From a virus (taxonomy: Duplodnaviria > Caudoviricetes): a stretch of DNA of 54,748 nt. The DNA lies in IMG/VR virus record IMGVR_UViG_3300044798_000072, positions 1 through 54,748 of that record; one strand, 5' to 3'. How positions within the stretch are numbered: the first letter of the stretch is position 1; every line of letters begins with the position of its first letter. The notes under the pieces were generated by a model. That model worked only from the letters and a program-made list of their open reading frames with translations. It was not told where the DNA came from and ran no database searches. Position numbers and translations under genes: made by a program. Positions 28,522 through 44,687 of the stretch are shown here, piece by piece.

Positions 28522-28537
28522 TTTCGTCAATAAAAAC

Positions 28538-29763: not shown

Positions 29764-29928
29764 ATGAACAAGGCAGCACAGGTTTTGGGCCGGCTTGGGG
29801 GATTGAAACGAGCGGCAAACATGACCAGCATTCAGCGTCAAGCCGCCGCTGCCCTTGCTGCCAATGCCCGTTGGACTGCGAAGCGGCAAGCATTGCCCGT
29901 GCCAAGTGCGGCTTCTTCCGTGAAATAA
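29764..29928 (+). CDS. Small basic GRLGGLKRA...ARW protein (putative DNA-binding)
   Basis: Recognisable motif AAQVLGRLGG...AANARW. Confidence 0.6.
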   Translation: MNKAAQVLGRLGGLKRAANMTSIQRQAAAALAANARWTAKRQALPVPSAASSVK

Positions 29929-30028
29929 ATCTTCGGTTTGATTGATTCTTTTCTTGCGTAGCGTTAAGCATTGGATTATTGTCTTGTCAGTAACAGTAAA
30001 CAACCAACCGAACAACACAGACAAAAAT

Positions 30029-30289
30029 ATGACAACCGCAACTGCCCAAGACTGGATTGACACCGACCCAAATGCCTGCCGCGCTGACGTGAAGCGTCTC
30101 GGACTCGACAAAGCGGTCGAATACCAACTCTCCCTGATTATTGACCGCGCCGCCGCTGGTGGTGACAACCGCTGGGACGATGCCGAGGAAAATATGCCAA
30201 ACCAAAGCCGCATGGATGCGGAAGATGTTGCCCGGCAAATAAAGAGCCGCTGTGCTTATTCAGTTCGCACGCGAATCGTCGAAGAATAA
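30029..30289 (+). CDS. Early hypothetical protein
   Basis: ATG after A-rich leader; TTGCGT-17-TATTGT promoter-like sequence near 29954. Confidence 0.6.
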   Translation: MTTATAQDWIDTDPNACRADVKRLGLDKAVEYQLSLIIDRAAAGGDNRWDDAEENMPNQSRMDAEDVARQIKSRCAYSVRTRIVEE

Positions 30290-30461
30290 TTCCCTCGCTA
30301 ACCAACACGAAAGGTAATATGAAAAACACGCATCAAAACGACAAGGCGACTTAGATTGCAAGCGGACCAACAACCGACTCTTACAACCCTTACCGAGTGG
30401 ACACAACGGCCAAGCGGCCATTGGGCGCGGAATTAACCGCAAATGAAAGACCAATAAAACC

Positions 30462-30857
30462 ATGAATGCAAAGACACTTGAAGCAATCACGCGCCACGGC
30501 GAAACCCTGTTAAGGGCTTTCCCGAACGCAACCGAGAAAAACCCTGTAACGCTTTGCAAAAAGTTACGCCGGATTGAAAACGCAGTTGCCAAGCCGATTC
30601 TGGATTACACTAACGGCGACAATGGCATGACGATTGAAAAGCTGGACGTTCAAACGGATAAGGCGTATTCGCGCTTATTACGCTTGCTTGGGAACACTAC
30701 GCCCATTTTGATTAACCGCGATCCACGCGGCCACGCCTTGAAAATAAACGACGCCTGGTCGCACCAGTTTAACGATGGGCAATACGCAGCCAAAATGCCC
30801 GCGCTTTACACCGACATGGGCGGGTATGGCATTCTAGCGCCTGATTTGAACCAATAA
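30462..30857 (+). CDS. Early hypothetical protein
   Basis: 131 aa, NRDPRG and DMGGYGILAP motifs. Confidence 0.7.
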   Translation: MNAKTLEAITRHGETLLRAFPNATEKNPVTLCKKLRRIENAVAKPILDYTNGDNGMTIEKLDVQTDKAYSRLLRLLGNTTPILINRDPRGHALKINDAWSHQFNDGQYAAKMPALYTDMGGYGILAPDLNQ

Positions 30858-30879
30858 CCCACCCACTCAACGCAAAATT

Positions 30880-31350
30880 ATGAAAAGCCAAATAATGCAG
30901 GACGACGTGAAGCGGTTCGCTGCCCGTCAAGAAATTGAACGCGCCGGGGCTTGTGTCGAAACATACAACGATGACGGCATGACGGTTGAACCGGGAAACA
31001 AACGCAAATCAAACCGATACTTTCTCAGAGGTTCCACTCAGAACCTCACAGGTTCTACACAACACCAAGACAGAGGTTCCAAACAGGCACACGAATTTAA
31101 CTCAGTAGAACTTAATTCAAAGAATGGAGAGTCCGCCCCCGTTCTTTTAAGAGCAAAAACGCGGAGCATGGCGGAAATAATTCACTTGGACAAAGAGCGT
31201 GACCGTTTGGAAAAAGAGCGGCAGGACATTCGCAGAAAAGCCGAAACGGGACTGGGCGGATATTCCTACACGGATACGCAACGCGCCCGAATCGTCGAAA
31301 TCAAAGAACGCATCGCAGCCATTGACAAGGCAACACACATTGAATTATGA
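30880..31350 (+). CDS. Hypothetical protein
   Basis: 156-aa ORF, ATGA overlap. Confidence 0.5.
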   Translation: MKSQIMQDDVKRFAARQEIERAGACVETYNDDGMTVEPGNKRKSNRYFLRGSTQNLTGSTQHQDRGSKQAHEFNSVELNSKNGESAPVLLRAKTRSMAEIIHLDKERDRLEKERQDIRRKAETGLGGYSYTDTQRARIVEIKERIAAIDKATHIEL

Positions 31351-31562
31351 ACGCATACACTCAGGCATTAACCCACCTAAGAGGCTGGTCAGACGCGGCG
31401 GGAAGCCGACCCATGAACCAAACCTATTTAGATATGGACGACCAAGCCACAGCCGCCGCTTATTCTGACGGATACGCCTTAGGCAAAGCAGATCGCCGAC
31501 GCGCATCGGATTATTCAGAAGCAAAATTTGGAGTCAAATTTAATGAAATCAAATTACAATGA
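31347..31562 (+). CDS. Hypothetical protein
   Basis: 71 aa, AYSDGY motif. Confidence 0.6.
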   Translation: MNAYTQALTHLRGWSDAAGSRPMNQTYLDMDDQATAAAYSDGYALGKADRRRASDYSEAKFGVKFNEIKLQ

Positions 31563-31615
31563 TTTTCCCCTTTCCAGTTTTCTTTTACGCGGTCAACAAT
31601 TAACACATTGAAGAT

Positions 31616-31846
31616 ATGAGTGAAGAAGTAATTTATCACCTGCTCAAGCCGAAGGAATTTCGGGTGTGGTGCGTCCACAATCGGCCACCCGGCCCAAAGA
31701 TGAACGTGACGCAATTCCCATCCAAGGCGAACTGCGTCAACTGCTTGACGAATTATCGCTATGCCCACAACAAGAGGGCCTGTTTTCACAAACGCTGGAC
31801 TGACCGCTATAACCCACCAGAAAGAACGCCAGCATTGGAGGAATAA
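31616..31846 (+). CDS. Hypothetical protein (CxxC)
   Basis: 76-aa ORF. Confidence 0.55.
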   Translation: MSEEVIYHLLKPKEFRVWCVHNRPPGPKMNVTQFPSKANCVNCLTNYRYAHNKRACFHKRWTDRYNPPERTPALEE

Positions 31847-31848
31847 TT

Positions 31849-32046
31849 ATGAGTGATTACAAATACGAAATGCAGCTTTTGGCCGAACAAGCCGCAGAGG
31901 AAAAATACGGCAAGGATTTCAGCGAGCTTCCTTCATCCGTTCAGGATGAGCTTTACCGCCGAGCGATGGACGATTGGCACGACCAACGAACGGAACAGGC
32001 CGACATGATGCGAGACGCGGCCAGAGACAGAGCAATGGGAATCTAG
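31849..32046 (+). CDS. Acidic hypothetical protein
   Basis: GGAGG RBS, 65 aa. Confidence 0.65.
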   Translation: MSDYKYEMQLLAEQAAEEKYGKDFSELPSSVQDELYRRAMDDWHDQRTEQADMMRDAARDRAMGI

Positions 32047-32075
32047 ACAATTCAAACACAACAACAAATGAGAAT

Positions 32076-32279
32076 ATGAAACTAAAACCTTACAGCATAA
32101 ATTCCGCCAAGCTCGCCCGGTTTCGCGCTGACAGAATCCGCAAGGCTGGAAAGCATAAATGCGTCCGTATCTTGGGCGCGACTGTTAGCCAGATCACCAG
32201 CGGGAGCAAAACTTTGAAACGCCCAAAAGTCCTAGCGCGATTCTACGAGTGCAAAATCTGCGGGCGCGACATGATATGA
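32076..32279 (+). CDS. Basic Zn-ribbon hypothetical protein
   Basis: Start at MKLKPY; HKC...ECKICG. Confidence 0.5.
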   Translation: MKLKPYSINSAKLARFRADRIRKAGKHKCVRILGATVSQITSGSKTLKRPKVLARFYECKICGRDMI

Positions 32280-32532
32280 CTTTCACCCCGTCAATGCGTC
32301 CTCGTGTCCGGCGTGGCCTTTTGCGGTGCTTTCCGCTGAGGCATCGTATCTTCATCCACGCATCGGATTGGCAAGGACAAAGCCGCAAGCCATTGCTCGC
32401 CGCCGGCCTAACACATGGCGCAGGCAGGTTATGGCCGGTTCACCTACCGAGAAAATTGCGGCCATTGGCGGGGTGTTCTTAACGTGTTAAAATGCAATGA
32501 AATACAGTGTTTCACAATTTGTTAAATAATCG

Positions 32533-32561
32533 TTGACACAAACTGTAAAAAAGATTAAGCT
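32533..32561 (+). promoter_or_regulatory. Sigma70-like promoter
   Basis: TTGACA-17-TAAGCT in AT-rich gap. Confidence 0.6.
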
Positions 32562-32570
32562 CTTTCAGTT

Positions 32571-32774
32571 ATGAGAACAAGAAAACCAAAGAATAAATTC
32601 ACCCGATTCTGCGCCGACCTTGACGCGCTTAAAGTTGGCGACACCATTTCGCATTCGATTGATGAGGCTCTCAGGTGGCGGGCATACAATCTCGCCCAGT
32701 TTGTCGGAGTCGAAATCAAGATTCGGGAAATACCGACGAAGAAGGGCCGTTACGAAGTAACGCGCATCCGGTGA
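32571..32774 (+). CDS. Small putative DNA-binding protein
   Basis: LKVGD...YEVTRI pattern, paralog-like to 32870. Confidence 0.6.
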   Translation: MRTRKPKNKFTRFCADLDALKVGDTISHSIDEALRWRAYNLAQFVGVEIKIREIPTKKGRYEVTRIR

Positions 32775-32869
32775 TATGACAGAATATAAGGAAGAACTCA
32801 CCCGTCGAGCAAGAAAGCTAATCTGGGCGTCGAAGATTCAACCGATAACAAAGTGATATAAAATAATTT

Positions 32870-33103
32870 ATGAGCGAAATAAAAATTGAAAATAACATAC
32901 CCTGTCCAGTCGGTCGGGCTTCGGGAGGAAAATGGAAATCTATTCTTTCGACGATGAAGGATGGAGAATCCTTTGTTGTGGACAATCTAACTGTCGCCGG
33001 TTCCGTGCGGGCCTCCGCGCACCAAGCTGGGTTCAGGATAAAATCCCATTGCCTTGATGATGGGAGAGTCCGCATTTGGAAAATCAGCACCATCAAGCCA
33101 TGA
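32870..33103 (+). CDS. Small putative DNA-binding protein
   Basis: IENNIPCP...MKDGESF...GRVRIW. Confidence 0.65.
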   Translation: MSEIKIENNIPCPVGRASGGKWKSILSTMKDGESFVVDNLTVAGSVRASAHQAGFRIKSHCLDDGRVRIWKISTIKP

Positions 33104-33317
33104 ACACATTTTTTATCTGGTGGCATAGACGGCTTGCCGCTCACCACTTCGCGCTGTCAAGGCAAGGATGGAGTATGATGCATGAAGGAAGCTGGCATTA
33201 CGCATGGATGGAATGGCATCTTGACCAAGTAAAACGACTTTCCGCGCCGGAGCGCAAAGTGCCTGCAACGGCTCAGGAGAGCGCGGTTAGGCAGCGAGAC
33301 GGCGCGGGATTGAATTT

Positions 33318-33512
33318 ATGAACGACCAAGACAGAATCAAAGTGGGTGACAAGGTGCATGTGGACTTCAATAACACACAAACCACACTCTGCCATGAGGC
33401 TGAGGTATTGTGGTCGCCGACCAACATGGGCGAATCGTGGATATTCAAAGACACAACCACCGGATTAGTCCACTACGTTTCCGAGGGATGCACAATCTCA
33501 AAATTGCGGTGA
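33318..33512 (+). CDS. SH3-like hypothetical protein
   Basis: IKVGDKVHV, 64 aa. Confidence 0.55.
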   Translation: MNDQDRIKVGDKVHVDFNNTQTTLCHEAEVLWSPTNMGESWIFKDTTTGLVHYVSEGCTISKLR

Positions 33513-33524
33513 ACAAAACAAAAT

Positions 33525-33614
33525 ATGAACGAACCAAAAACAATCGAAATGGAAATCGTCAGTCAAACCGACGACAAGCTTGTAAAATTCGCAACCAAGA
33601 CGGGACTTGAAAAG
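33525..33614 (+). pseudogene. 5' fragment of phage gene interrupted by IS1595-family element
   Basis: ORF start runs in frame into IS end at 33615; probable 3' remnant LRDMARV...QAQRI ends at 35422. Confidence 0.55.
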
Positions 33615-35312
33615 GGCAATAATATACTTGACTCACATGCGGCAAAAGGTTTAATCTTTCCGAAACCTAAACGAAAGAAAAAACCCGTGACCGTTATAAT
33701 TGGAATAATTTGCGAATTTGGAATCGTGCTGGCAAGCGATAGTCAAACCACGTTTGGAGATAACTCTAAAAGGTGTGATGCTGAAAAAATCCGCGTGGTA
33801 AAATTCAAAGAAAGCGACGACAAAGTATTGGTAGCCCAATCAGGGTCAGTTGAAACATCAAGCCGAGCAATAGACGTAATGGAACAATTGGCGGCTGACC
33901 GAAAATTGGAAAACGAAGAAACGGTTATCAGCACTGTCCAGAAAGCCATGCATAAAGTAAGAACAGAAATACGACATCAAAACTTCGATTGCAGCGCGGA
34001 AGAATTCGACAAAATCATAACCAATCACGGATTGGACTGTTCTTTGATGACGGCGAATTTTTTCGACAAGAAGCCTTTTATTCACACATTTAACTTTCAG
34101 CGCGGAACAACTGAAAACTGCAAAACATTTTACGAATCCACCGGATGCGGCTCTGCGCTGTCCAATTATATTTTAAGCGAATTATGTTCACCAAAAATGG
34201 ATTCTCGGTTGGGACAAGCCATTGCAGTTTATGTCGTAGATAAAGCGATCAAACACGTTGCCTACTGCGATAGGCCAATACGATTGGCGACCATTTATCC
34301 GTGGGAGTCGTCATTCTTTCCTTCACCATCAAATTTGCTTGGCTCTCTACTTGATGAATCTAAATCAACAGCGCCGCGCATATTTTCATCTGCTCCGCCC
34401 TTATTTATGGACAATGTTAAGATAGAAGACGCCGAAGAAGTCGAAAAAATCATAAATAAAGTGACTAAAATTGATGAGGAAACAAAGCCGCAGAGAATTA
34501 AAAAGCTACGCGAAGCATTGATTTCTTACGCTGACACAATGAATGACTATTCCCAAGCAGCCTTAACAAAGAAACAAGCACCAAATGAATAACGAATTTC
34601 CACAAACCCTAGTCGCCGCAATTCGGCATTTCTCTGACCCGCAAGTGGCGTTTGACTTCATGGTGAAACTGCGCTGGCCGGACAAGGTGAAATGCCCGCG
34701 CTGCCAGTGTGAGGACGTGAGTTTCATTGCCACGCGCAAAATCTGGAAATGCAAGCATTGCACAGAGAAAGGCCAGTTCTCCGTTCGCGTCGGCACGATT
34801 ATTGAAGATAGCGCATTGTCATTGGACAAATGGCTTGCCGCGATCTGGATGATTGCCAATGACAAAAACGGCGTTAGCTCCTACGAAGTTCATCGCTCAA
34901 TCGGCGTCACGCAAAAAACCGCTTGGTTCATGCTGCAAAGAATCCGGCTCGCTATGCAAACCGGCACGTTTGAAAAGATGAAGGGGGAAATCGAAGCCGA
35001 CGAAACTTATATCGGCGGCAAAGTTCGCAATATGCACGTTGAACAGAAACGCAAACGCGGTCGCGGGACTGGCGGCGTAGGTAAGGCGATTGTTATGGGA
35101 TTATTGGCGCGGCACAGTAAAGCGGGCACAAGTAAGGTGAAGGTCAAACACGTTCCAAACTCCCGGCGCGGCACGGTTCAAGGCGAAATCCGCGAACACG
35201 TCGAGGCTGGTTCACAGGTGTTCACGGATGCCCTGCCATCTTACAATGGGTTGAATCCTGATTACGTTCACGAAGCAATCAATCACGCCGAATGTTATGT
35301 GCGCGGGAATGT
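33615..35312 (+). mobile_element. IS1595-family element with passenger gene, right end deleted
   Basis: Left end GGCAATAATATACTTGACTCA resembles the TIRs at 48720/49963; transposase truncated; no right TIR found. Confidence 0.8.
33687..34592 (+). CDS. Proteasome beta-subunit-like Ntn hydrolase (Thr protease), IS passenger
   Basis: GTG start gives (M)TVIIGI...GIVLASDSQTT...KI...SG...STGCGS; also in frame with upstream ATG 33525. Confidence 0.8.
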   Translation: MTVIIGIICEFGIVLASDSQTTFGDNSKRCDAEKIRVVKFKESDDKVLVAQSGSVETSSRAIDVMEQLAADRKLENEETVISTVQKAMHKVRTEIRHQNFDCSAEEFDKIITNHGLDCSLMTANFFDKKPFIHTFNFQRGTTENCKTFYESTGCGSALSNYILSELCSPKMDSRLGQAIAVYVVDKAIKHVAYCDRPIRLATIYPWESSFFPSPSNLLGSLLDESKSTAPRIFSSAPPLFMDNVKIEDAEEVEKIINKVTKIDEETKPQRIKKLREALISYADTMNDYSQAALTKKQAPNE

Positions 35313-35379
35313 TGCGCGACATGGCCCGCGTGAAGTTGATGGACGAATCACTGTCAGACTCCATCTGGACAAAAGTTAA
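34585..35379 (+). pseudogene. IS1595-family transposase, C-terminally truncated
   Basis: Zn ribbon CPRC/CKHC, KTAWFMLQRIR, EADETYIGG, VFTD, then breaks after HAECYVRGNV before the HTNxIE catalytic Glu. Confidence 0.9.
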
Positions 35380-35464
35380 TGAACTCGCCGATTGGTGCGA
35401 CGAACAAGCCCAAAGAATATGAACAAACAAAATGAACTCGCGGTAAATTAACAAAACAAAACCT

Positions 35465-35899
35465 ATGCCTACCATAAATGACCTAAAACAGTTCAAGTAT
35501 TTAACCAAAGCCGATGTTACACCACCCGTGCTGGTGACTATTCGCAGCTATGAACAAGTCAATGTTGCCAAGGAGGGGGCAGAACCAGAAATGCGATGGG
35601 CGTTGCTATTTGATGAATTGGACAAACCAGCAATCGTCAACAGCACGAACGGCCAAATCATAGCCGCTATCACCAAGAGCGAAGATTTTGACGGCTGGAT
35701 TGGACACAAAATCGTTTTGTTCAACGACCCGAATATCAGCTTCGGGGGGAAACTCACCGGCGGCATTCGTTGCCGCGCCCCGCGCAACCAGTCGGCACAA
35801 ACCGCGCCCGCGCCCTCCGCTGCACCAGCCAAGGCCAACCCCGCGCCAGTTGTTGAAGCTGCCGAGCAAGAGGCGGGAGATTCCTGGGTCCCTTTTTGA
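35465..35899 (+). CDS. Putative ssDNA-binding/recombination protein
   Basis: KYLTKAD, NSTN, WIGHKI, GGIR; acidic tail ending VPF. Confidence 0.6.
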   Translation: MPTINDLKQFKYLTKADVTPPVLVTIRSYEQVNVAKEGAEPEMRWALLFDELDKPAIVNSTNGQIIAAITKSEDFDGWIGHKIVLFNDPNISFGGKLTGGIRCRAPRNQSAQTAPAPSAAPAKANPAPVVEAAEQEAGDSWVPF

Positions 35900-36005
35900 A
35901 ACGCGGATTGATGTTATGCGAAAAATGCGGAAAATTCAAATCGGTTGCTTGGTCGGTTAAACACCAAGCAGCCGTTTGTTTCACTTGTCAAATGGAACCA
36001 GTAAA

Positions 36006-36368
36006 ATGAAAGCTATCGTTTCTCAAATAATTCTGACCAGTTTCAGCAGCCGTGCTGACGGGAGCATGAGCTTTCGCGGCGTGACCCCGGAGCTTTCCAC
36101 CGTGGAAAAAGTTGCCATGATGGAATTGCAAAACCTTAACTGCCGCGCACTGTTTGAACCATCGGACTTTTCCAGCGACGGCAAAGTTGAAATGAAAAAT
36201 CCGATTGGCACAAAGCCGCCAAGCGTCAGGCTTCGCGGCGTCCTGTTTGTGCTTTTCAAGCAGCTTACGGCCAGAGGAAAGCTGGACGGGAAAAACTTTG
36301 ACACGTTTTACGTCGAGCAAATGGAAACCATAATTCAGTCCTACAAAGACCAACTCGAACCTGAATAA
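36006..36368 (+). CDS. Hypothetical protein
   Basis: SRADGSMS, KPPSVRLRGVL. Confidence 0.65.
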   Translation: MKAIVSQIILTSFSSRADGSMSFRGVTPELSTVEKVAMMELQNLNCRALFEPSDFSSDGKVEMKNPIGTKPPSVRLRGVLFVLFKQLTARGKLDGKNFDTFYVEQMETIIQSYKDQLEPE

Positions 36369-36371
36369 ATT

Positions 36372-37019
36372 ATGAACCGAATTTTCTACGACCTCGAAAC
36401 CGAGGGATTGCCAGAAGCCGACCTTGCCAAGCTCATGCCGGAATTCGCGGCGGGCGCAAACCTGAAAGACCCGGCCAAGATTGTCGCCGCCATCGCTGAC
36501 AAGAAACAGGACTGGCTGGACGGCGCGGCATTGAAAGCCATCACCGGCAAGATTGTGGCAGTGACGATTGCTTGGGACGACACTGAGCCGACAATGTTTG
36601 CCAACGACCCCGACGGCGAAATTGGTTTAATCAAGATTGTTTTGCGTGAACTGAAACGGATGATTTCGGTTGGAGGCATGGCTTACGCTTGGAACGGCCA
36701 CGGCTTTGACCTACCATTTCTTTGTCAGCGGGCGGCGGTTCACAACATCCAAGCCTTTCGTGACCTGACCGTGAATGTCCGGGGCAGGTTCTATTGGCAC
36801 GAATCGCTAATTGACCCAAAACTTGTCTGGTCAAATTACTCACCCGACCATACCGGAACCAGTCTGAAATCTGTTGCGCTTGCATTGGGTGTTGGTGAAA
36901 AAATTGGAAGCGGCAAGGACTTCGCCAAACTGCTCAAGGAAAATCCAGCCGAGGCTACACGCTACGCGCTGGCCGACATTACTTTGATGCGTGGCATAAT
37001 AAACCGAATGGGAATATGA
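36372..37019 (+). CDS. DEDD 3'-5' exonuclease (PolB-exo-like)
   Basis: YDLET, WNGHGFDLPFL, YALAD. Confidence 0.85.
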   Translation: MNRIFYDLETEGLPEADLAKLMPEFAAGANLKDPAKIVAAIADKKQDWLDGAALKAITGKIVAVTIAWDDTEPTMFANDPDGEIGLIKIVLRELKRMISVGGMAYAWNGHGFDLPFLCQRAAVHNIQAFRDLTVNVRGRFYWHESLIDPKLVWSNYSPDHTGTSLKSVALALGVGEKIGSGKDFAKLLKENPAEATRYALADITLMRGIINRMGI

Positions 37020-37112
37020 CCAACAACCGCAACCCGAAGCCGGATTCGACCTGACGCCATAAGCAAACCAAAAACGAATATGAAGAAACATCTTGTCACT
37101 GCAAAACGCGCT

Positions 37113-37180
37113 GTGAAACGACAAGCCGCTGCCGGAACTGGAGTGCGTAGCTCCAGTTCTGTGCAGCGCCCTTGTTAGGC
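37113..37180 (-). repeat. attC-like site 1 (degenerate)
   Basis: AAC...cgctgc-cggaactggag/ctccagttctg-t-gcagcg-ccctt-GTTAGGC. Confidence 0.55.
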
Positions 37181-37201
37181 CACTCGCAACGAAATAAAAA
37201 T

Positions 37202-37459
37202 ATGAACATAACATTCGATAAACTGACGCTCGAAATAAACCGAGAGGAGGCATACGCGCTCTACTCGACAATCAAACATGGTCTTGAGGACAGAATCAAA
37301 GACCACTGGCACAACCATCCAGACTCATACGAGAAACTGGAATCTCAACGACTGCACATGATGCGTGAACTTGCCAGATTCACGGGCAACGACTTTAACT
37401 ATGACTCCGCCGAGCTAAAAAGGCTGCTGACGGAATACCAGAAACCTAAAGTGGCCTAA
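37202..37459 (+). CDS. Cassette 1 hypothetical protein
   Basis: Stop TAA inside GCCTAAC. Confidence 0.7.
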   Translation: MNITFDKLTLEINREEAYALYSTIKHGLEDRIKDHWHNHPDSYEKLESQRLHMMRELARFTGNDFNYDSAELKRLLTEYQKPKVA

Positions 37460-37577
37460 CGCCGCGCTATGCCGCGACTCTGGAAACGAGCGTGGAGCGC
37501 AAAAACCGGAATAAAATTATGAGCAAAACAACGAACGTAAGACGCCAAGAGTCGTTGGCATCAGCAAGAGGTTCTAC
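37454..37577 (-). repeat. attC-like site 2
   Basis: GCCTAAC..gctatgccgcgactct / agagtcgttggcatcagc..GTTCTAC. Confidence 0.8.
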
Positions 37578-37761
37578 AGCTTCGTGCGACCTGCGAAGCC
37601 CACTAGCAAAAGCGCGTGACGCATTTCTGGCGAGCGAGGAAGGCGAGAAGCTGACGAATCCAGGCATACTAAGAAGCCGTGACCTGCGCCAATATCTCGA
37701 AAATCGAATCGAACTCGCCTACCTCGCGGGCGTAGCCGATGCCAAAAAGCTAAAGCTGTAG
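37519..37761 (+). CDS. Cassette 2 hypothetical protein
   Basis: ATG in attC2 loop; stop TAG in GTAGAAC. Confidence 0.7.
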   Translation: MSKTTNVRRQESLASARGSTASCDLRSPLAKARDAFLASEEGEKLTNPGILRSRDLRQYLENRIELAYLAGVADAKKLKL

Positions 37762-37889
37762 AACGACCGACTTGCGCCGCAGCCACGGATAACGGCTGAC
37801 GGCTCCGAAAAGGAAAAAATATGAGAGAAGAAAAAGACCAATCGAAAACTGAAAGCGTAGTGGCTGTTGGCTCGAAGGAGTTGTTAGCG
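37758..37889 (-). repeat. attC-like site 3
   Basis: GTAGAAC..gccgcagccac / gtggctgttggc..GTTAGCG. Confidence 0.75.
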
Positions 37890-38042
37890 ATGGAACAATT
37901 ATACGCGAAGCTCAAACACCGAGAGCACGAACAAAGAGTAAAAGCCGTCGAAGCCGTGAACCGTGCCGAAACATACCAAGACGCTTCAATAGAAGTGGAC
38001 TTCACGATGGACAAAATCAAGAAAATGCTCACAAGCAGCTAA
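37821..38042 (+). CDS. Cassette 3 coiled-coil hypothetical protein
   Basis: ATG in attC3 loop; stop in GCTAAC. Confidence 0.7.
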   Translation: MREEKDQSKTESVVAVGSKELLAMEQLYAKLKHREHEQRVKAVEAVNRAETYQDASIEVDFTMDKIKKMLTSS

Positions 38043-38126
38043 CGCAGAGTTCAGGAACGCCGCACGCAAGGCGTCCGACTCTGAAGGCAGCGTCCAATAG
38101 GCGTTTCCTGCAACGATTTGTTGGGC
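38037..38126 (-). repeat. attC-like site 4
   Basis: AGCTAAC-gcaga-gttcaggaacgcc / ggcgtttcctgcaac-gattt-GTTGGGC. Confidence 0.85.
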
Positions 38127-38148
38127 AGCAAAATTGAGATATACAAAA

Positions 38149-38856
38149 ATGAAAAAGACACTTGGCGAACTTATCGAACCCGGATTTAGCCACTATCGAA
38201 GCATCGGCGAACTGGCGCGCACGCTCCAATTCCTGATGTCCACGGCGCACACATTCCGCGACCCAGGCCGCTGGGGAACTTCCGGCCCGCAAGAATATCT
38301 GTGCGCCTACGGCGGATGCGTGAACTGCGACACCCAGCCGTGGCACAGTGGCCGGATCGTCTCAACAAATCCCCATGTGGTCGAGACAACCACATGGCAG
38401 CAAAACCAAGACAGCATCCGCGACTGCATCCTCGACGCGCTCTGCTCACGCTATCCGGCGGAACTGCGCTGGCGGAAGCGGCACAAAATCAGTCTCGACA
38501 CGCTGCTGAAATTCCCGATGGCTTATCAGAATCAGGACAACGAAAAAAAGGTGTGGGAGCAACCGATGGGGCTTGGACTCGGCGGGACATTCGTGCCATG
38601 CGTCGAACCGATACTATTCTGCCGACGCGGAAACCTGCCCGCAAAACGCCGAATGGATCGCAACTGGTGGGGGTGGCCGCGTGGACGGCACAGCCAAAAA
38701 CCAGAAGCGTTTCAGACGATGGTGGAGTCAGTAAGTCCCGGCCCATACTTGGAAATGTTTGCTCGACGCAAGCGGGAAGGCTGGGCGGCGTGGGGCAATG
38801 AAATAACCAGTGACCTAAAAATGCAGAACATTGGCGCTGAGGCGCGCGACCTATGA
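38149..38856 (+). CDS. Chimeric protein with C-terminal half of an MT-A70 adenine methyltransferase
   Basis: GLG...EPILFCRRG, HSQKPE, YLEMFAR, GWAAWGNE present; catalytic DPPW absent. Confidence 0.7.
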   Translation: MKKTLGELIEPGFSHYRSIGELARTLQFLMSTAHTFRDPGRWGTSGPQEYLCAYGGCVNCDTQPWHSGRIVSTNPHVVETTTWQQNQDSIRDCILDALCSRYPAELRWRKRHKISLDTLLKFPMAYQNQDNEKKVWEQPMGLGLGGTFVPCVEPILFCRRGNLPAKRRMDRNWWGWPRGRHSQKPEAFQTMVESVSPGPYLEMFARRKREGWAAWGNEITSDLKMQNIGAEARDL

Positions 38857-38926
38857 CAACCGCAAACGAAAATGCTCCCGGCAAACCTGAAGGCGTAATC
38901 ACGTCGCCTCCAGCAACTTGTTCGGT
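38823..38926 (-). repeat. attC-like site 5
   Basis: GCAGAAC..gctgaggcg / cgcctccagc-aactt-GTTCGGT. Confidence 0.8.
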
Positions 38927-39101
38927 GGCTTGGTGGATCGTATTGAGGCCACCAGAAAAGTGGGCGCGCGGCGAATTCAGCCACAGTCCGATGCCAATAG
39001 CCGCATTCATAAGTGAACGGATGGCGAAGGAATGGATAGCGTCCGCAGCGCACAGATACCGTGATATAATTCAGCCACCGAATGAGAAAGTTCAGATATG
39101 A
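38853..39101 (+). CDS. Cassette 5 hypothetical protein
   Basis: ATG in attC5, ATGA overlaps at both ends. Confidence 0.65.
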   Translation: MTTANENAPGKPEGVITSPPATCSVAWWIVLRPPEKWARGEFSHSPMPIAAFISERMAKEWIASAAHRYRDIIQPPNEKVQI

Positions 39102-39207
39102 GCGACCAAAATCACAAGCACTTTTATATTTACGGGCGATGCCAATGCGGGCAAGTCCAACCGAACTACAACGCGCAGAGCGAATTATCTGCAACGCCTT
39201 GTTCGGC
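39077..39207 (-). repeat. attC-like site 6
   Basis: ACCGAAT..gttcagata / tatctgcaac-gcctt-GTTCGGC. Confidence 0.7.
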
Positions 39208-39343
39208 GTGGGTGACGGCGATCTGGCGTGAATCGTTTCGTTGTGAACACACCTCGCTATTGGTGTTTTGTAGCTGGTTAACAGCAATGGGAAAGCTGCA
39301 AGCATCGGGCTGGCCTGTGCATTTTGAGGGCCGTGAACAATGA
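39098..39343 (+). CDS. Cassette 6 hypothetical protein
   Basis: ATG in attC6. Confidence 0.5.
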   Translation: MSDQNHKHFYIYGRCQCGQVQPNYNAQSELSATPCSAWVTAIWRESFRCEHTSLLVFCSWLTAMGKLQASGWPVHFEGREQ

Positions 39344-39344
39344 C

Positions 39345-39476
39345 GCCGAACGCCAAGCTCACTGACCGGAGCGCCAAATGACAATTTCGCCACACGCACC
39401 CCGCAACCAGGCACCGCGACCGGCGCTGTCTGAACTGGAAGCGCAAGCTCCGGTTCAGTGCAGCGCCGGGTTAGCC
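39345..39476 (-). repeat. attC-like site 7
   Basis: GCCGAAC-gccaa-gctcactgaccggagc / gctccggttcagtgcagc-gccgg-GTTAGCC. Confidence 0.9.
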
Positions 39477-39704
39477 TGCATTTCGACGGCGATGGTGGCG
39501 AAACATAAAGGCTGCCCGGAGCTAAAACCGTGTAAGCACTGCGGCTACTCGCCGGTGAGGATTGACACGACATTTGCGAACGGCTCGAAAGCCTTCGCCT
39601 TCGGATGCCCGAATGAGGAATGCAACCCGCGAGGCCGGCATTCGGTCTTGATGCCATCGAAGCGGGAAGCAGCAGCCGCATGGAATTACGCCAATGCAGG
39701 CTAA
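39378..39704 (+). CDS. Lar-like restriction alleviation Zn-finger protein
   Basis: LKPCKHCG...CPNEEC...AAAAWN. Confidence 0.7.
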   Translation: MTISPHAPRNQAPRPALSELEAQAPVQCSAGLACISTAMVAKHKGCPELKPCKHCGYSPVRIDTTFANGSKAFAFGCPNEECNPRGRHSVLMPSKREAAAAWNYANAG

Positions 39705-39826
39705 CGATCAAGCTCACGCGCAGCCACTTGTGAGCGAGACAGGAAAATGAAACCAACAACCAAATTACTGCGACGCACGACAAAACCGAGGGGCGAGTGG
39801 CTGTTGCGTGCAGCGCGGTGTTAGAC
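39699..39826 (-). repeat. attC-like site 8
   Basis: GGCTAAC..gctcacgcgcagccac / gtggctgttgcgtgcagc-gcggt-GTTAGAC. Confidence 0.9.
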
Positions 39827-39831
39827 GACCT

Positions 39832-40104
39832 ATGACGAGAGAAATCATAATACAACCAGTGCTCAACGGCTACGTGTGTGTCGTTGGATGTCAGCGCGTC
39901 GCGTTCACTGACAAGCAAACGATGCTGGGGCAACTCAGCGAATACCTCGACAAGCCCGATGAAGTGGAACAACGCTACATCGAACGTGCCGTGAACAAAA
40001 TGCCAGCGGTGCCGCAACCGTGCAGGCCAACCGACTGCTGTGAGTCAAGCGCGCCCACGCCGTCCGTAACGATGGGACGTGTGGAAGAACGCCGGCCACG
40101 ATAA
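39832..40104 (+). CDS. Cassette 8 hypothetical protein
   Basis: MTREIIIQPVLNGYVCVVGCQ... Confidence 0.7.
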   Translation: MTREIIIQPVLNGYVCVVGCQRVAFTDKQTMLGQLSEYLDKPDEVEQRYIERAVNKMPAVPQPCRPTDCCESSAPTPSVTMGRVEERRPR

Positions 40105-40138
40105 CACAAATGACGACCAGGCTCGCAAGGGTCTGGTC

Positions 40139-40430
40139 GTCTAACGACGGAGCTATGCCGCGCCGTCAAACTAAATAAAAATATGGAAAATCCAAAACTT
40201 CTAGCCTGCCCGTTCTGTGGCAGCGAAGTGACGCTCAAAGATACCGGCAATGACGCCGGATACCGATGGCTCGTGCGCTGCGATAATGCGCTCTGCATGG
40301 TCAACCCATTCGCACGGGCAAAAAGCCTAGATGCGACAATGGCAATCTGGAACCAAAGGGCAGGCGGTCGAAAACCAGCGCCGCCCGAAACCGAGACCGT
40401 AAAGGCGTTGGCATCAGCGACTGGTTCTAC
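40139..40430 (-). repeat. attC-like site 9 with ~240-nt coding loop
   Basis: GTCTAAC..gctatgccgcgcc / ggcgttggcatcagc-gactg-GTTCTAC. Confidence 0.75.
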
Positions 40431-40656
40431 CGCTGGCTACGACTGGACTGTGATGTGCGATAAATTGCCACCGCACTGCGTCAGGGTGATGACCTATTCA
40501 CCACAACCAATCGGTGCGCGGCAGAATCTTACGGACGGAGTAGCCATCCTATGCTGGAACGCTCACGAACAACGATGGTGCGATGACAACGGGGAGACAT
40601 CCATGTTCAAACCGACAGCCTGGTGGCCAATAACCATCCCAACTAAAAAGCGGTAG
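40183..40656 (+). CDS. Lar-like Zn finger fused to DUF551-like domain
   Basis: ACPFCG...CDNALC...IWNQR then WTVMCDKLP...PTAWWPI. Confidence 0.75.
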   Translation: MENPKLLACPFCGSEVTLKDTGNDAGYRWLVRCDNALCMVNPFARAKSLDATMAIWNQRAGGRKPAPPETETVKALASATGSTAGYDWTVMCDKLPPHCVRVMTYSPQPIGARQNLTDGVAILCWNAHEQRWCDDNGETSMFKPTAWWPITIPTKKR

Positions 40657-40746
40657 AACACCCAAGCTGAGCGATGACGCCACTACCAACATCCGATTGC
40701 AAACAAGAGCGCCAAGGCGTCATTCGCTCCAGCGCCCTTGTTAGGC
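40653..40746 (-). repeat. attC-like site 10
   Basis: GTAGAAC..gctgagcgatgacgc / gcgtcattcgctccagc..GTTAGGC. Confidence 0.9.
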
Positions 40747-41513
40747 ATCTTGTCCTATTTTCAGGAGGTCTTGTCTCTTGGGCGACAGCAAAGCGCGTGG
40801 TAGCAGCCCACGGCACGGATGGCGTAGTGCTGCTGTTCGCTGACACGATGATGGAAGATGAAGACCTGTATCGCTTCATAGTCCAAGCCGCCGAAAATGT
40901 CGGCGTGCCGCTGACTCGAATCGCGGACGGTCGCAACCCGTGGGAAGTCATGCGCGATGAACGAATCATCGGCGGCGGAATGACTGGCGCTGATCCATGC
41001 AGCAAAATACTGAAACGCCAACTGCTCGACCGATGGACGCGGGAAAACTGCCAGCCGGAAACGGTTTCTCATGTGGGACTCGACTGGACAGAGCATCACC
41101 GGCTAGACCGGATGCGCGTGAGGATGCCGGAACGCAAATGGTCTGCGCCGATGACAGAAGCTCCCTACATGACGAAGCCGCAAATGATGGCGTGGCTGAA
41201 ATCGGAAGGCATCGAACCTCCGAGACTCTACAAAATGGGATTCCCGCACAACAACTGCGGCGGCTTCTGCATCAAAGCCGGTCAAGCTCACTTCGAGCTA
41301 CTGCTGCGGATGATGCCAGACCGCTACGCTTACCACGAACAGAAGGAAGAAGAAATGAGACAGATGCTCGGAAAAGACTATGCCGTGCTGCGCGAACAGC
41401 GCGACGGAAACAAATTCCCGCTCACGCTGCGGAAGCTGCGCGAGCGGATTCAGTCACAAGGCTCATTCGACCAATTCGAGTGGGGCGGCTGTGGCTGCGC
41501 GATAGATGCCTAA
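40674..41513 (+). CDS. PAPS-reductase-like (PP-loop, Cys-cluster) phage protein
   Basis: FSGGLVS, FADTMMEDEDLYRF, CSKILK, HNNCGGFCIKAG, GGCGC. Confidence 0.8.
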   Translation: MTPLPTSDCKQERQGVIRSSALVRHLVLFSGGLVSWATAKRVVAAHGTDGVVLLFADTMMEDEDLYRFIVQAAENVGVPLTRIADGRNPWEVMRDERIIGGGMTGADPCSKILKRQLLDRWTRENCQPETVSHVGLDWTEHHRLDRMRVRMPERKWSAPMTEAPYMTKPQMMAWLKSEGIEPPRLYKMGFPHNNCGGFCIKAGQAHFELLLRMMPDRYAYHEQKEEEMRQMLGKDYAVLREQRDGNKFPLTLRKLRERIQSQGSFDQFEWGGCGCAIDA

Positions 41514-41606
41514 CGTATGAGCCAAGCCACAGCCAACCAGAAACCGTCAACCGCGATAGCGGATGCTGGACGCCCGATGGCTGTTGGCTTCGGCGATTTG
41601 TTCGGC
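41508..41606 (-). repeat. attC-like site 11
   Basis: GCCTAAC..gccaagccacagcca / tggctgttggcttcggc-gattt-GTTCGGC. Confidence 0.85.
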
Positions 41607-41861
41607 ATCGTGCTGTCGGTCCGCGAGTCTGCAATAGTGAAACTTCTCTCGGAGGGCATGACCGTAAAAGAGATCGCCCTCAATCTCAAAATCTCGAATA
41701 AGACCGTCGAGTTCCACTCCCTGCGAGCGCGCCGGAAAATCGGTAATCTATCCATTGCTGTGATGACTCGGTTCGCAATCATAAATGGACTGAGTGAACT
41801 TACGATGCCGAACAGAGAGATAACCAACACAAAATCCGACTCTAAATCCACAAATGCCTAG
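41517..41861 (+). CDS. LuxR-type HTH protein
   Basis: LSVRESAIVKLLSEGMTVKEIALNLKISNKTVEFH. Confidence 0.85.
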   Translation: MSQATANQKPSTAIADAGRPMAVGFGDLFGIVLSVRESAIVKLLSEGMTVKEIALNLKISNKTVEFHSLRARRKIGNLSIAVMTRFAIINGLSELTMPNREITNTKSDSKSTNA

Positions 41862-42138
41862 ACGTTATACAGATAGGGATAGGCAACTTGCAACGCACGC
41901 AAGGGCTAGAATACGAATATCCGCGCCTGATTTCAGCAGCGCGTCTCGTCGGAAAGTTCGTATGCCACGCGGCAGGATCAGGTTCACGCTTACGCTGGAA
42001 GATCACCAGATTGGGGACAAGATGAGATTGGGCCTGTTCGCGCTTCCGTGGCGGGGAAGATTTGTATCAACCGACGGCCAGCAGTTGAGCGCGGTCAAGA
42101 TTATATCAGCGGTCAACACCGTTCTTTGCCATGATTGA
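41854..42138 (+). CDS. Hypothetical protein
   Basis: 94 aa, overlapping starts/stops. Confidence 0.55.
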   Translation: MPRRYTDRDRQLATHARARIRISAPDFSSASRRKVRMPRGRIRFTLTLEDHQIGDKMRLGLFALPWRGRFVSTDGQQLSAVKIISAVNTVLCHD

Positions 42139-42388
42139 GTCCAAGCTAAAATCAGCCGCGCTGGAGTTCAGTCGAAAGTCCGGCATTCGTCCTGCCGTGC
42201 TGGTTCAAGAGGCGATGCAGATTGGGGCGAGCATTGCCCTGGAACACGCCGTCACGAAGGTTAAGAACGAAACCAAGCTGCGCCAGCGGTTGAACCGAAT
42301 TGGACTGCAAGACGGCGGGGAGAAAAGCGGGAGTTTGGTGATTGAGGAATTGGAAAATAAATCGTTGACAAATGGGGCGGTAGGATAG
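42131..42388 (+). CDS. Hypothetical protein
   Basis: 85 aa. Confidence 0.6.
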   Translation: MIESKLKSAALEFSRKSGIRPAVLVQEAMQIGASIALEHAVTKVKNETKLRQRLNRIGLQDGGEKSGSLVIEELENKSLTNGAVG

Positions 42389-42739
42389 AACTTAAAGCAT
42401 CGCATATTTTATGCGGTCAGAGCTTTTGAGATGGCCCTGTGAACGCAGTTGAAAATGAACCTAACGAAATTTCAAGTCCGTTGCTGTTGGCGACCTTGCC
42501 AAAAAGCTGAAAGGCTCTGCGACATCTCAACGCCAACGGCAGCGGTCTTGAGCTTTTGATTTTATGGATAAATCTCTTTTTGGGTTTCGGATTTACACAA
42601 GCGATTCTGGAAATGTTGTGATAACACAGGATACAGGCCGTGAGGAAAACGTTGTTATTTTGAAGCCAGAGCAAATACCATTGCTTGTTTCATGGCTCAA
42701 AGAAGCGGCGTCTGAAATTTACACCCCGGAGGAAAGGCA

Positions 42740-43426
42740 ATGACCTTTCAAATCAAAGACTGGAACTCTCACTTTGAGAATGACCGCAGCCGACAGCGGG
42801 CTAATTGTTCCTTCGTATGCGTCCCAAACAAGCAGCACGGGATGGGATTCTGCCGCATCATGGCTGAACAGGACGGCGCGGCAATTTATGGAATATGGCA
42901 TTGTATTGTCGGAGCCTGTTCCCAACAGAAGCATCGTGACGGTTGGCTAACCGCAGACGGTGACATGGCGGGGAGTCCGTGGGGAGTTGGCGACCTTGCG
43001 TTGAAATTCAGAAGGCCTGAAAAAGAGGTTGAAAGAGCGTTACAAGTGCTTTGTTCTGAAAAGGTTGGGTGGATTATTATACACGGTAACAGCCAAGTAA
43101 CCGCCGACTCACCGCCGACTCACCTAGAAGAGAAGGAAGGGAAAGAAGGAAGAGAAGAGAAAGAAGGCGCTAGCTCCCTCTCTGAAATACCTTCTTGGAA
43201 TGAATTTTGGGAATACTGCAAGTCTCCTCAATGCGGGATAGCGGCGGAATGGTTTGCGAAGGACAAATATCTTTCCGTGGATGATTGGTCTAAAAAGAGG
43301 GACTGGCGGAAGTTCGCGCTCCGAGTTCGCGGCTGGTGGGACAACGATGGCAGGCCGATGACGCCACCAAAAAAGAACGGTTCCGACACGGGGCCACAAA
43401 AATCATACCTTCAAAGGCCGGGATAA
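42740..43426 (+). CDS. Phage replication initiator
   Basis: IKDWNSHFEN N-terminus, EEKEGKEG linker, directly upstream of dnaB. Confidence 0.7.
   Translation: MTFQIKDWNSHFENDRSRQRANCSFVCVPNKQHGMGFCRIMAEQDGAAIYGIWHCIVGACSQQKHRDGWLTADGDMAGSPWGVGDLALKFRRPEKEVERALQVLCSEKVGWIIIHGNSQVTADSPPTHLEEKEGKEGREEKEGASSLSEIPSWNEFWEYCKSPQCGIAAEWFAKDKYLSVDDWSKKRDWRKFALRVRGWWDNDGRPMTPPKKNGSDTGPQKSYLQRPG
43100..43168 (+). other. Candidate replication origin inside initiator gene
   Basis: accgccgactc x2 tandem followed by purine-skewed tract, as in lambda O-type genes. Confidence 0.4.
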
Positions 43427-43427: not shown

Positions 43428-44687
43428 ATGGAAACGAAACTACCGCCGCACAGCGCAGATGCAGAGCAGTTCGTCATAGGCTGCTGTCTGACGACGCCGG
43501 TTGAATCCGTTCCTGAATCCATTGGCCGAATTAACAGCGGCCACTTTTACGACCAGCGGAACAGAATCGTTTGGGAAGCGATGGCAACAATGCGGCCTGA
43601 CGAAGTGGACGCCATCACAGTGCGGCAGTATTTGAAGGGCTTTAAAAGTTCTGAAAAGATTGGCGGCGACCAATACCTTGCGCTGTGTCAGGACAAGGTT
43701 ACATCTTCCGCGATGCTCCCAGCCATGCTGGACATCCTCGTTGAGCAAAAGATTCGGCGGGACATCATTGCCACGGCGACAGAGGCGGAAATGGCGGCTT
43801 ACAGTCCCGGCAACGCGCTTGAAATTCTGGACACCATCGAAAGCAAAATCCTAAAAATCAGACCCGCACAGACCGAAGTCGTCGGCATCAAAGAACTGGT
43901 TCACGCCGCTATTGGCCGGATTGAATCCAAATTCCTGAACGGTGACAAAATAACCGGACTGGAAACCGGACTGGTTGACCTTGACCGGCTGACGGATGGA
44001 TTACACCCCTCTGAAATGCTGGTAATCGCCGCGCTGCCAAGCCGGGGCAAGACAGCCCTTGCCGTTAATATCGCAGTCCGGTCTGCGTTGGCCGGCGTCC
44101 CGGCGCTGATTCTTTCCGCAGAAATGCGCCCCGTGCAACTTGTCGTTCGGTCAATCTGTTCTGAATCCCGCGTCAATTTTCACCACGTCAAAGAGTCAGA
44201 CATGCCAGCCATGATGTCCGCTTGCACAAGGCTGTCCAATGCTCCGCTTTACATCGAGCGAGCCAGCGGGTTCACCATAGGACAAGTCAAGGCCATTGCC
44301 CGACGCCATCACCAAAAAAACGGCATCAAACTGATTGTGATTGATTACCAGCAGCGGCTTGTCGGCGAGGGGGACAATCAGGAACAGAAAATCGCGTCCA
44401 TTTCCAAGGGCGTGAAAGATATTGCGATGGAGTTGGACGTGCCGGTGATTCTGCTTTCACAGGTGAACAAGGACGGCGAGACGAAACACGCCCGCGCCAC
44501 AGCCGAGGACTGCGATTCATTATTTAAATTAGAAAATGAGGGGGAACTTAACCCGACGATTCAAACCGTAAAACTGATTGTTGAAAAATCACGCGACGGT
44601 CAAACCGGATACGTCATGCTGGAATTTTTCAAAGAATTTACCCGATTCGAGAATCGTTCGCCGGTTGATGAAAAGGACATTCCATGA
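43428..44687 (+). CDS. dnaB: Replicative DNA helicase
   Basis: PPHSADAE, AALPSRGKT, SAEM, IVIDY, LSQVN, KSRDG. Confidence 0.95.
   Translation: METKLPPHSADAEQFVIGCCLTTPVESVPESIGRINSGHFYDQRNRIVWEAMATMRPDEVDAITVRQYLKGFKSSEKIGGDQYLALCQDKVTSSAMLPAMLDILVEQKIRRDIIATATEAEMAAYSPGNALEILDTIESKILKIRPAQTEVVGIKELVHAAIGRIESKFLNGDKITGLETGLVDLDRLTDGLHPSEMLVIAALPSRGKTALAVNIAVRSALAGVPALILSAEMRPVQLVVRSICSESRVNFHHVKESDMPAMMSACTRLSNAPLYIERASGFTIGQVKAIARRHHQKNGIKLIVIDYQQRLVGEGDNQEQKIASISKGVKDIAMELDVPVILLSQVNKDGETKHARATAEDCDSLFKLENEGELNPTIQTVKLIVEKSRDGQTGYVMLEFFKEFTRFENRSPVDEKDIP

Follow-up and report, generated by a model that had tools for sequence, protein, structure and literature searches.

A probable integron-type cluster of eleven inverted gene cassettes in an uncultured peat phage

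The IMG/VR virus record IMGVR_UViG_3300044798_000072 was analysed over its whole length (the window; 54,748 bp, linear, rated 97% complete) and represents an uncultured peat phage. Within its replication and accessory region, eleven hairpins precede eleven gene units in an array at 37049–41813, which is most likely a genuine integron-type cluster of attC sites lacking an integron integrase (CALIN), composed of eleven inverted cassettes that the integron integrase (IntI) of the host would excise and exchange. A cassette would pair one gene unit with the attC hairpin that lies before it on the plus strand. During infection, the host integron integrase would fold the plus (bottom) strand and cut at AA/C, and the cassettes would leave as circles to be inserted or exchanged among phage genomes. 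By this route the phage would gain a shuffling store of counter-defence genes, namely a DNA methyltransferase, two Lar-like proteins, and a 3′-phosphoadenosine-5′-phosphosulfate (PAPS) reductase-like enzyme.

DNA folds of the plus strand and a listing of the hairpin arms placed 11 hairpins between the units. Their layout runs from an R box through an unpaired spacer of 4–7 nt, 3 bp, a bulged C, 5 bp, and a bulged T into a stem with a variable loop. Both bulges lie on the 3′ arm of the plus strand and are cleanest in hairpins E8, E10, and E11, with E1 and E7 departing from the standard attC layout. An earlier annotation of the window (the original prediction) had placed an extra C and T on the plus-strand right arm of the best-preserved hairpins; the position of the bulges stands. 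GTT is found at the 3′ end of all 11 hairpins, and the 5′ end is AAC in nine, AAT in E6, and GAC or AAC (ambiguous) in E1. The RRRY part of GTTRRRY fits 4 of the 11 (GTTAGGC twice, GTTGGGC, and GTTAGAC), the rest reading GTTCTAC, GTTCGGC, and similar. In the arms, ∼20 nt are identical across the whole family.

To find relatives of these sites, the conserved arm motif was scanned through 185,579 species genomes. At least 120 stretches were returned; most single matches are expected by chance, and the analysis was confined to loci in which several copies of the motif occurred together with end pairs. Among the matches listed, arrays with end pairs were found at L068 (a Verrucomicrobiae metagenome-assembled genome, MAG), L096 and L121 (Limisphaerales), L103, L119 (Chloroflexia), and L108 (Luteimonas), and four of five such genomes encode an IntI above the TIGR02249 cut-off. 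The intI gene lies inside locus L068, next to the array; in L134 and L135, it is flanked by attC sites, and the L103 array in genome G004 continues unbroken to an intI ∼0.75 kb past the last attC. A covariance model (R2) was then constructed solely from 14 attC sites of IntI-adjoining, Verrucomicrobial-type chromosomal integrons (L068, L103, and L121) in top-strand orientation, and the window was searched with filters off. R2 matched 9 of the 11 hairpins at 22–65 bits (E values of 6e-4 to 4e-16) and E1 at E = 0.12, all on the minus strand. Folds, arm listing, and model (9 of 11 at E ≤ 6e-4) together bear out the predicted presence of 11 imperfect hairpins with attC architecture. Four class 1 attC sites on which R2 had not been trained were matched on their gene strand at 21–38 bits, and R2 can therefore be regarded as a general attC model with a trustworthy strand call. 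Phage hairpins score 22–70 bits with R2, a range that overlaps the untrained Verrucomicrobial loci and at its top exceeds the Chloroflexia, Luteimonas, and class 1 sites. Read on the bottom strand, the chromosomal attC sites are built like the phage plus strand, in the order stem, T, 5 bp, C, 3 bp, spacer, and GTTAGGC, with parts of the arms identical, and E11 is ∼75% identical over its whole length to attC sites of the L068 Verrucomicrobiae chromosomal integron (blastn). By sequence and predicted structure, the attC sites of the phage are of the family found in Verrucomicrobiae/Limisphaerales-type chromosomal integrons. No cassette open reading frame (ORF) was found in common between the window and the bacterial loci, which gave only attC-level matches and one DnaB-like match. 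Two side observations concern the bacterial sites: in L068 (4541–5055), the two attC sites nearest to intI are identical 155-nt copies flanking duplicated units and look like a recent tandem cassette duplication, and a 1675-nt contig from a MAG labelled Bifidobacteriaceae (L025) contains Verrucomicrobial-type attC sites at 80–84 bits and is probably misbinned.

The units between the hairpins have complementary ends that differ from one unit to the next. In linear integron cassettes, such complementarity arises from a crossover that divides the R box. Exact GTT.../...AAC pairs of 11–13 nt were found at 37174/37460 (11 nt), 37571/37764 (12 nt), 39470/39705 (13 nt), 39820/40145 (11 nt), 40424/40659 (11 nt), 40740/41514 (11 nt), and 41600/41813 (12 nt); a weaker 9-nt pair lies at 39201/39351, and three units are weak. 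All seven pairs quoted in the original prediction were thus recovered as exact by repeat search and pair scan, the first being 11 nt rather than 10. GTT-led pairs of at least 10 nt number 11 in the whole window, 7 of these within the 4.6 kb of the array; 100 first-order shuffles of the 54.7 kb gave 2.15 such pairs on average and never more than 7. As positive controls for this signature, three integrons from Qi et al. 2023 (PMC9892861) were examined: a Vibrio anguillarum phage with IntIA and Vibrio cholerae repeat (VCR)-type attC sites (L010), Shewanella phage M16-3 (L011), and a class 1 array in a P1 isolate (L013). In all three, consecutive units have complementary GTT.../...AAC ends of 8–12 nt with attC-sized gaps between them, and the Verrucomicrobial arrays adjoining IntI show the same complementarity over 9–12 nt. 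The proposal that complementary ends are the footprint of circular cassettes was therefore reproduced in three bona fide integrons as well as in IntI-linked Verrucomicrobial arrays. Terminal repeats of the kind found in miniature inverted-repeat transposable elements or insertion sequences were considered and rejected, because the ends vary from unit to unit and agree with the integron controls.

Because the attC matches of R2 lie on the minus strand and the genes of the array on the plus strand, the array is inverted. In four complete integrons, R2 also places the attC sites on the strand that does not carry intI, and in the three controls the gene (top) strand has its bulged bases on the 5′ arm, opposite to the arm that carries them in the phage. 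In the description by Nivina et al. 2016 (PMC5027507), the bottom strand of an attC site has its conserved AAC in R′ and its extrahelical bases close to L″; by this rule, the plus (coding) strand of the phage is the attC bottom strand. This assignment had been made in the original prediction, and it held with all R2 matches of the array on the minus strand and with the class 1 and four complete integrons as strand controls. For a count of orientation, the longest ORF per strand was taken for each unit between two R2 matches, excluding match pairs <80 nt or >2200 nt apart and contig L006, the array of which duplicates that of L005; units 8 and 9 of the window were counted as one because E9 is not an R2 match. 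In 26 phage units from the window and four related contigs (L001, L004, L005, and L144), the ORF was opposite to the attC top strand in 19 and on the same strand in 2, with 5 ties. The 51 bacterial units gave 2 opposite, 39 on the same strand, and 10 ties. Genes on the strand opposite to that of canonical cassette ORFs, as had been claimed for the window, are thus the rule in the phage units (19 of 26) and rare in bacterial units (2 of 51). In integron cassettes generally, a top-strand ORF with its attC behind it is usual, though not required. In the related phage L004, the array lies on the other strand and the inversion still holds.

With the genes on the attC bottom strand, each attC precedes its gene. 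All hairpins but one (10 of 11) contain an ATG-led ORF that runs through the 3′ arm to GTT; eight of these ORFs continue as the gene of the unit and two stop at the TAG of GTTAG. In the eight, the hairpin provides the start codon and the first 17–35 residues. In the PAPS-reductase cassette, the family match starts at residue 22–24, the position of GTT, as do all homologues, and no in-frame ATG, GTG, or TTG was seen by eye between GTT and the conserved SGG motif of this ORF, so the E10 hairpin must supply the start (40674). These ORFs, and the position of the hairpins on the sense strand, would also suit an explanation in which the hairpins work mainly at the level of RNA or expression, as processing sites, terminators, or translation-start modules, and their mobility is incidental; attC sites are thought to contain weak terminators (Qi et al., PMC9892861). 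As a full account this is very unlikely, since it accounts neither for complementary ends specific to each unit nor for the agreement with IntI-linked attC sites under the covariance model or the AAC-precise polymorphism described below. An expression role can, however, coexist with the integron explanation as a second role. RNase III-type sites alone were rejected, as the complementary ends remain unexplained by them.

The original prediction had pointed to cassette-precise gain and loss at the AA/C junction, and this was found both within one sample and between relatives. Logan contigs of the peat run X1, possibly the source of the window itself, contain two deletion joints. One (37457 to 38827, depth 7.3) omits 1369 nt, or three cassettes; the other (41511 to 41811, depth 9.65) omits 299 nt, comprising attC 11 and the LuxR unit. 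Both share only 3 letters, AAC on both sides, and both fall at the plus-strand 5′ end of hairpins, which is the expected position of bottom-strand AA/C cleavage. Because 31-mer contigs cannot form joints from a 3-nt repeat, deletion molecules exist in the X1 sample. Taken together, the full and deleted forms account for the depth of the flanks (15.9 + 7.3 and 11.6 + 9.65 against 22–24). Some X1 contigs break at cassette borders and others overlap across the borders of the array, where array depth equals flank depth. Between genomes, unit 10 is common to the window, L144, and L150 at 91–92% nucleotide identity, and whichever two of the three are compared, the homology ends at AAC (41514/41515). 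Similarity between the window and L144 resumes exactly at the AAC ending the last unit, after 296 nt and ∼1390 nt, respectively. Relatives with flanking genes 76–78% identical in nucleotides have no array content in common with the window but do carry arrays of this kind, both at this locus and in other places. More distant PAPS-reductase homologues (L145–L156, with L153 outside the search) gave a single R2 match, in L147, and did not help with the boundaries. As a separate observation, the arrays of L001 (4910–6271) and L004 (2385–4409) lie at different backbone positions and on opposite strands, that of L001 downstream of DnaB and that of L004 far upstream and inverted, with the genes on the attC bottom strand in each.

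The depth and overlap of the X1 contigs also bear on the suggestion that a fragment of a host chromosomal integron was captured by the phage, or joined to it through misassembly or misbinning, and is a passive passenger without a role in phage biology. The attC type is indeed that of chromosomal integrons, and Vibrio phages in PMC9892861 carry captured pieces of host integrons. A passive piece is nonetheless highly improbable here, given that the array matches its flanks in depth with contigs overlapping across the borders, that its cassettes hold phage-type genes (phrog_359, phrog_599 twice, and phrog_424), that the gene orientation is the reverse of that in bacterial arrays, and that several related phage contigs have arrays at this point of the backbone.

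Several observations weigh against the integron explanation in its simplest form. Crossovers at AA/C alone would keep a hairpin with its downstream unit, but the two were found to assort separately. Upstream of the PAPS unit that they share, the window and L144 have different hairpins, and the homology breaks ∼14 nt before GTT. The hairpins at L001 5858–5952 and L004 3056–3150 are 98% identical and are surrounded by unrelated units, as are those at L144 2840–2941 and L005 3743–3844 (89% identical); backbone genes of these hairpin-sharing phages are ∼77% identical. Similar cases were found in metagenomes. Pond and viral-metagenome contigs contain the E6 hairpin by itself, with unlike sequence on both sides; one long piece, from X3, has 3 differences. 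The E9 hairpin type is found without its Lar insert in pond and lake runs (joints 40193 to 40401 and 40187 to 40369), and the Lar insert itself (40196–40426) occurs with 0 differences in two other metagenomes in different surroundings. The shares of 0.05–0.07 obtained for X3–X5 represent hairpins or single modules only, and no habitat claim is drawn from them. Over longer times, hairpins and units thus seem to behave as separate modules, for which AA/C-only crossovers are insufficient. Rare top-strand events are one possible cause, top-strand recombination frequencies being lower but non-zero (Qi et al. 2023, PMC9892861), and homologous exchange within the conserved arms is another. The two X1 deletion forms, which come from one run, could moreover be co-existing strains rather than products of ongoing excision.

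Boundary sequences of lambdoid phages have been proposed to act as short homology linkers for recombination. By analogy, the hairpin arms might serve mainly as such linkers for general recombination of the phage, their resemblance to attC reflecting ancestry without current IntI activity. The independent assortment of hairpins and units would agree with this, as would breakpoints that lie on the GTT side or within the conserved 3′ arm, the ∼20 nt of family-wide arm identity, and the exonuclease gene adjoining the array. Linkers are still an unlikely explanation: only the 3 letters of the AAC crossover triplet are shared at both X1 joints, the three-way homology of unit 10 ends exactly at AAC and not inside an arm, and the unit-specific end complementarity is the trace of a circular intermediate, which homologous exchange does not yield.

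The remaining points on the opposing side concern site detection and the identity of virus and host. A second covariance model (R1), made from 16 attC sites of Vibrio, Shewanella, and estX, recovers untrained class 1 attC sites at 16–31 bits and finds only 1 of the 11 hairpins in the window (E4, minus strand, 16.9 bits). This can be ascribed to the limited reach of a gammaproteobacterial model, since the bona fide aadA2 attC also scores only 16.1 bits. With R2, E9 (a 292-nt body) was undetected and E1 marginal. The label “phage” rests mostly on IMG/VR, CheckV, and gene content, together with a weak terminase match and one Atlas lead to virus-only clusters. PHROG scans of 20 ORFs from the left block, backbone, and flanks gave only six named matches (terminase at 4.1e-8, GroES, HslV-like, DarB-like at 2.1e-5, and two families of unknown function), and the left-block proteins tested, from a minus-strand block presumed to be structural, had no PHROG match at ≤1e-5 to a head, tail, or packaging family. 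As the large left-block ORFs mostly lack a PHROG family, the virus is very divergent. Positions 36300–42800 had no match in 50,697 phage records (blastn, “distant” mode). The ORF at 15516–20438 in the left block (1640 residues) has as its sole match a weak one to a DarB-like antirestriction family (phrog_10089, 2.1e-5). Finally, nothing was found when window DNA at 20000–37100 was compared with five IntI-bearing genomes, a result that neither links the virus to a host nor speaks against such a link.

No tyrosine recombinase candidate was found with TIGR02249 or PF00589 in the whole record (97% complete). With ten R2 matches in 4.6 kb and no integrase in 54.7 kb, the array corresponds to a CALIN, defined as at least two close attC sites with no intI nearby, and not to a complete integron, in which intI, with attI and a promoter, stands beside the array. 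Because a tyrosine recombinase is lacking and the attC type is that of IntI-bearing Verrucomicrobial genomes, host IntI supplied in trans is the most economical reading, and from these sequence comparisons we infer that host IntI acts in trans on the phage array.

The individual parts of the array are given here along the plus strand, with attC sites matched on the minus strand, units on the plus strand, and bit scores from R2 unless stated. At the far end of the array, attC 1 (E1; 37049–37180) is weak (13.8 bits, E = 0.12) with a degenerate left R box; its left end, originally put at 37113, is ambiguous and is placed at 37049 by the model. A 32-residue leader ORF in E1 (37080–37178, plus strand) has the TAG of GTTAG as its stop. 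Unit 1 (37174–37460, 11-nt complementary ends) contains an ORF at 37202–37459 that has no family found and a stop codon within the R box. The loop of attC 2 (E2; 37454–37577, 22.0 bits, E = 6e-4) contains the ATG (37519) of the ORF of unit 2 (37571–37764, 12-nt ends, ORF 37519–37761). Similarly, the loop of attC 3 (E3; 37755–37888, 28.1 bits, E = 1.1e-5) contains the ATG (37821) of the ORF at 37821–38042 in unit 3 (37884–38042), the end complementarity of which is only ∼6 nt. The attC 4 site (E4; 38037–38126, 35.1 bits; 16.9 bits with R1) is the sole hairpin without an internal ATG and the sole one also matched by R1. It is followed by unit 4 (38120–38829), which encodes a DNA methyltransferase (MT-A70-like; phrog_359 at 2.2e-19, PF05063 at 6.1e-5, slightly under the cut-off) in an ORF (38134–38856) extending 27 nt into attC 5. 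In attC 5 (E5; 38823–38926, 23.0 bits, E = 3e-4), the left R box was corrected to 38823–38829, and the AAC at 38827–38829 is the right end of the 1369-nt deletion form. Unit 5 (38920–39083) has an ORF without a family at 38853–39101 and a right triplet AAT instead of AAC, which amends the AAC earlier given as the left triplet of the sixth hairpin (E6; attC 6, 39077–39207, 31.9 bits).

Unit 6 (39201–39351, 9-nt ends, ORF 39098–39343) is followed by attC 7 (E7; 39345–39476, 37.1 bits, E = 3.2e-8) and by unit 7 (39470–39705, 13-nt ends), which encodes a Lar-like restriction alleviation protein (ORF 39378–39704, phrog_599 at 1.6e-5). A 25-residue leader ORF (39747–39824) in attC 8 (E8; 39699–39826, 50.7 bits, E = 4.4e-12) again takes its stop from the TAG of GTTAG, and the ORF of unit 8 (39820–40145, 11-nt ends, ORF 39832–40104) has no family. 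The 292-nt attC 9 (E9; 40139–40430), missed by R2, has a whole Lar-like ORF inserted in its loop; its arms resemble those of E2, and its right arm is identical to an L001 hairpin arm at 30 of 30 nt. Unit 9 (40424–40659, 11-nt ends) is the in-frame C-terminal part of the ORF at 40183–40656. The start codon (40674) and 22 residues of the PAPS-reductase ORF lie in attC 10 (E10; 40653–40746, 29.5 bits), the remainder being unit 10 (40740–41514, 11-nt ends; a PAPS-reductase-like gene, phrog_424 at 7.4e-49 over residues 24–275). The best match of the array, attC 11 (E11; 41508–41606, 64.9 bits, E = 4.4e-16), precedes unit 11 (41600–41813, 12-nt ends), a LuxR/GerE-type helix-turn-helix regulator (ORF 41517–41861, PF00196 at 3.2e-13). 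The cargo thus amounts to a DNA methyltransferase, two Lar-like proteins (phrog_599 twice), a PAPS-reductase-like enzyme, a LuxR-type regulator, and six small ORFs without a family. In the folds, the left end of the array has a hairpin and the right end (41813) has none, so that the top strand shows the layout of an array running from an attI-type junction to the final attC.

The array region is bordered by a 3′-5′ exonuclease-like gene (36372–37019) and a DnaB helicase gene (43428–44687), and every gene in the region is on the plus strand. Just upstream of the exonuclease gene lie an ORF for an IS1595/ISXO2-type DDE transposase (34585–35379, PF12762 at 7.3e-24) and a gene for an HslV/proteasome-like peptidase (33525–34592). 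A second, single cassette was found in the left minus-strand gene block at 8017–8535, directly beside a GroES-like gene (7727–8071, phrog_3188 at 3.5e-9). Its attC sites (8017–8122 at 48.9 bits and 8412–8535 at 43.4 bits) have their top strand on plus and surround a minus-strand ORF (8071–8487), so this cassette is inverted too; lying outside the array, it shows that cassettes are not limited to one locus. IntI can place cassettes outside integrons, at attG sites and isolated attC sites, in bacterial genomes (Loot et al., bioRxiv 10.1101/2022.09.11.507474), and comparable insertion at non-classical genomic sites would explain the seeding of both the array and the cassette at 8017–8535.

Clusters of attC sites in phages are already published. 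Qi et al. 2023 (PMC9892861) describe 17 CALINs without intI in cultured or deposited phage genomes, both virulent and temperate; IntI1 in trans recombined 5 of 6 phage attC sites tested, and methyltransferase cassettes were among the cargo. Those CALINs and the present array are alike in having attC sites and cassettes without intI and in including methyltransferase cassettes. They differ in that the published clusters, with a minimum of two attC sites, come from cultured phages, whereas 11 attC sites are found here in an uncultured one. Cassettes in phages TJE1 and PH101 of that study are oriented as in bacterial arrays, and those of the window and of four related contigs are reversed. Start codons inside attC sites, the Verrucomicrobial attC type, and cassette-precise forms within one sample further set the array apart from what PMC9892861 describes. 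A full-text literature search, with the supplementary tables of PMC9892861 outside its scope, found no inverted phage array, start codons inside attC sites, Verrucomicrobial-type phage array, or within-sample cassette-precise forms; a reversed array may exist among the other CALINs of that study.

The array also resembles the sedentary chromosomal integrons of Verrucomicrobiae/Limisphaerales type (L068, L103 with L164, L134, and L135), which have the same attC family with R box GCCTAAC/GTTAGGC and, like the phage array, complementary ends (9–12 nt in the chromosomal arrays) and stop codons within the R box. In contrast, the chromosomal arrays have an adjacent intI, and their genes follow the attC top strand in 39 of 51 units, whereas the phage has no intI and genes on the bottom strand (19 of 26). 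Compared with the class 1 site attCaadA7 (PMC5027507), in which the bottom-strand R′ is 5′-RYYYAAC and the extrahelical bases are G16 and T23, the phage bulges stand at about 16 and 22. The phage sites differ from class 1 attC sites in having C instead of G as the first bulge, a conserved arm motif, and, in many cases, long coding loops.

Integrons are known as bacterial devices. What is found here is a phage lineage with a long array that varies between co-occurring genomes, with attC sites of a host-lineage type, no integrase, and genes for anti-restriction and DNA modification. The systematic inversion, with start codons inside attC, is a departure from the textbook cassette layout. A more tentative idea, considerably less probable than the CALIN itself, is that the phages keep a private pool of counter-defence cassettes in mirror orientation that is run on the integron integrase of the host, with the inversion being functional and hairpins and units separately exchangeable. 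In such a pool, attC would double as translation start module and leader, and the inversion would act as a firewall, because cassettes crossing between host and phage would lie antisense and silent. Recent preprints reportedly assign a role in storing anti-phage defences to bacterial integrons, both chromosomal and mobile; if the idea is true, the pool would be the equivalent of such defence-storing integrons on the phage side. For this virus, which cannot otherwise be placed, the attC type also points to a predicted host, namely a Verrucomicrobial one with intI. If host IntI drives the array, both sides of the arms race would draw on one recombinase, and the mosaicism of accessory genes in this phage group would gain a defined site-specific mechanism.

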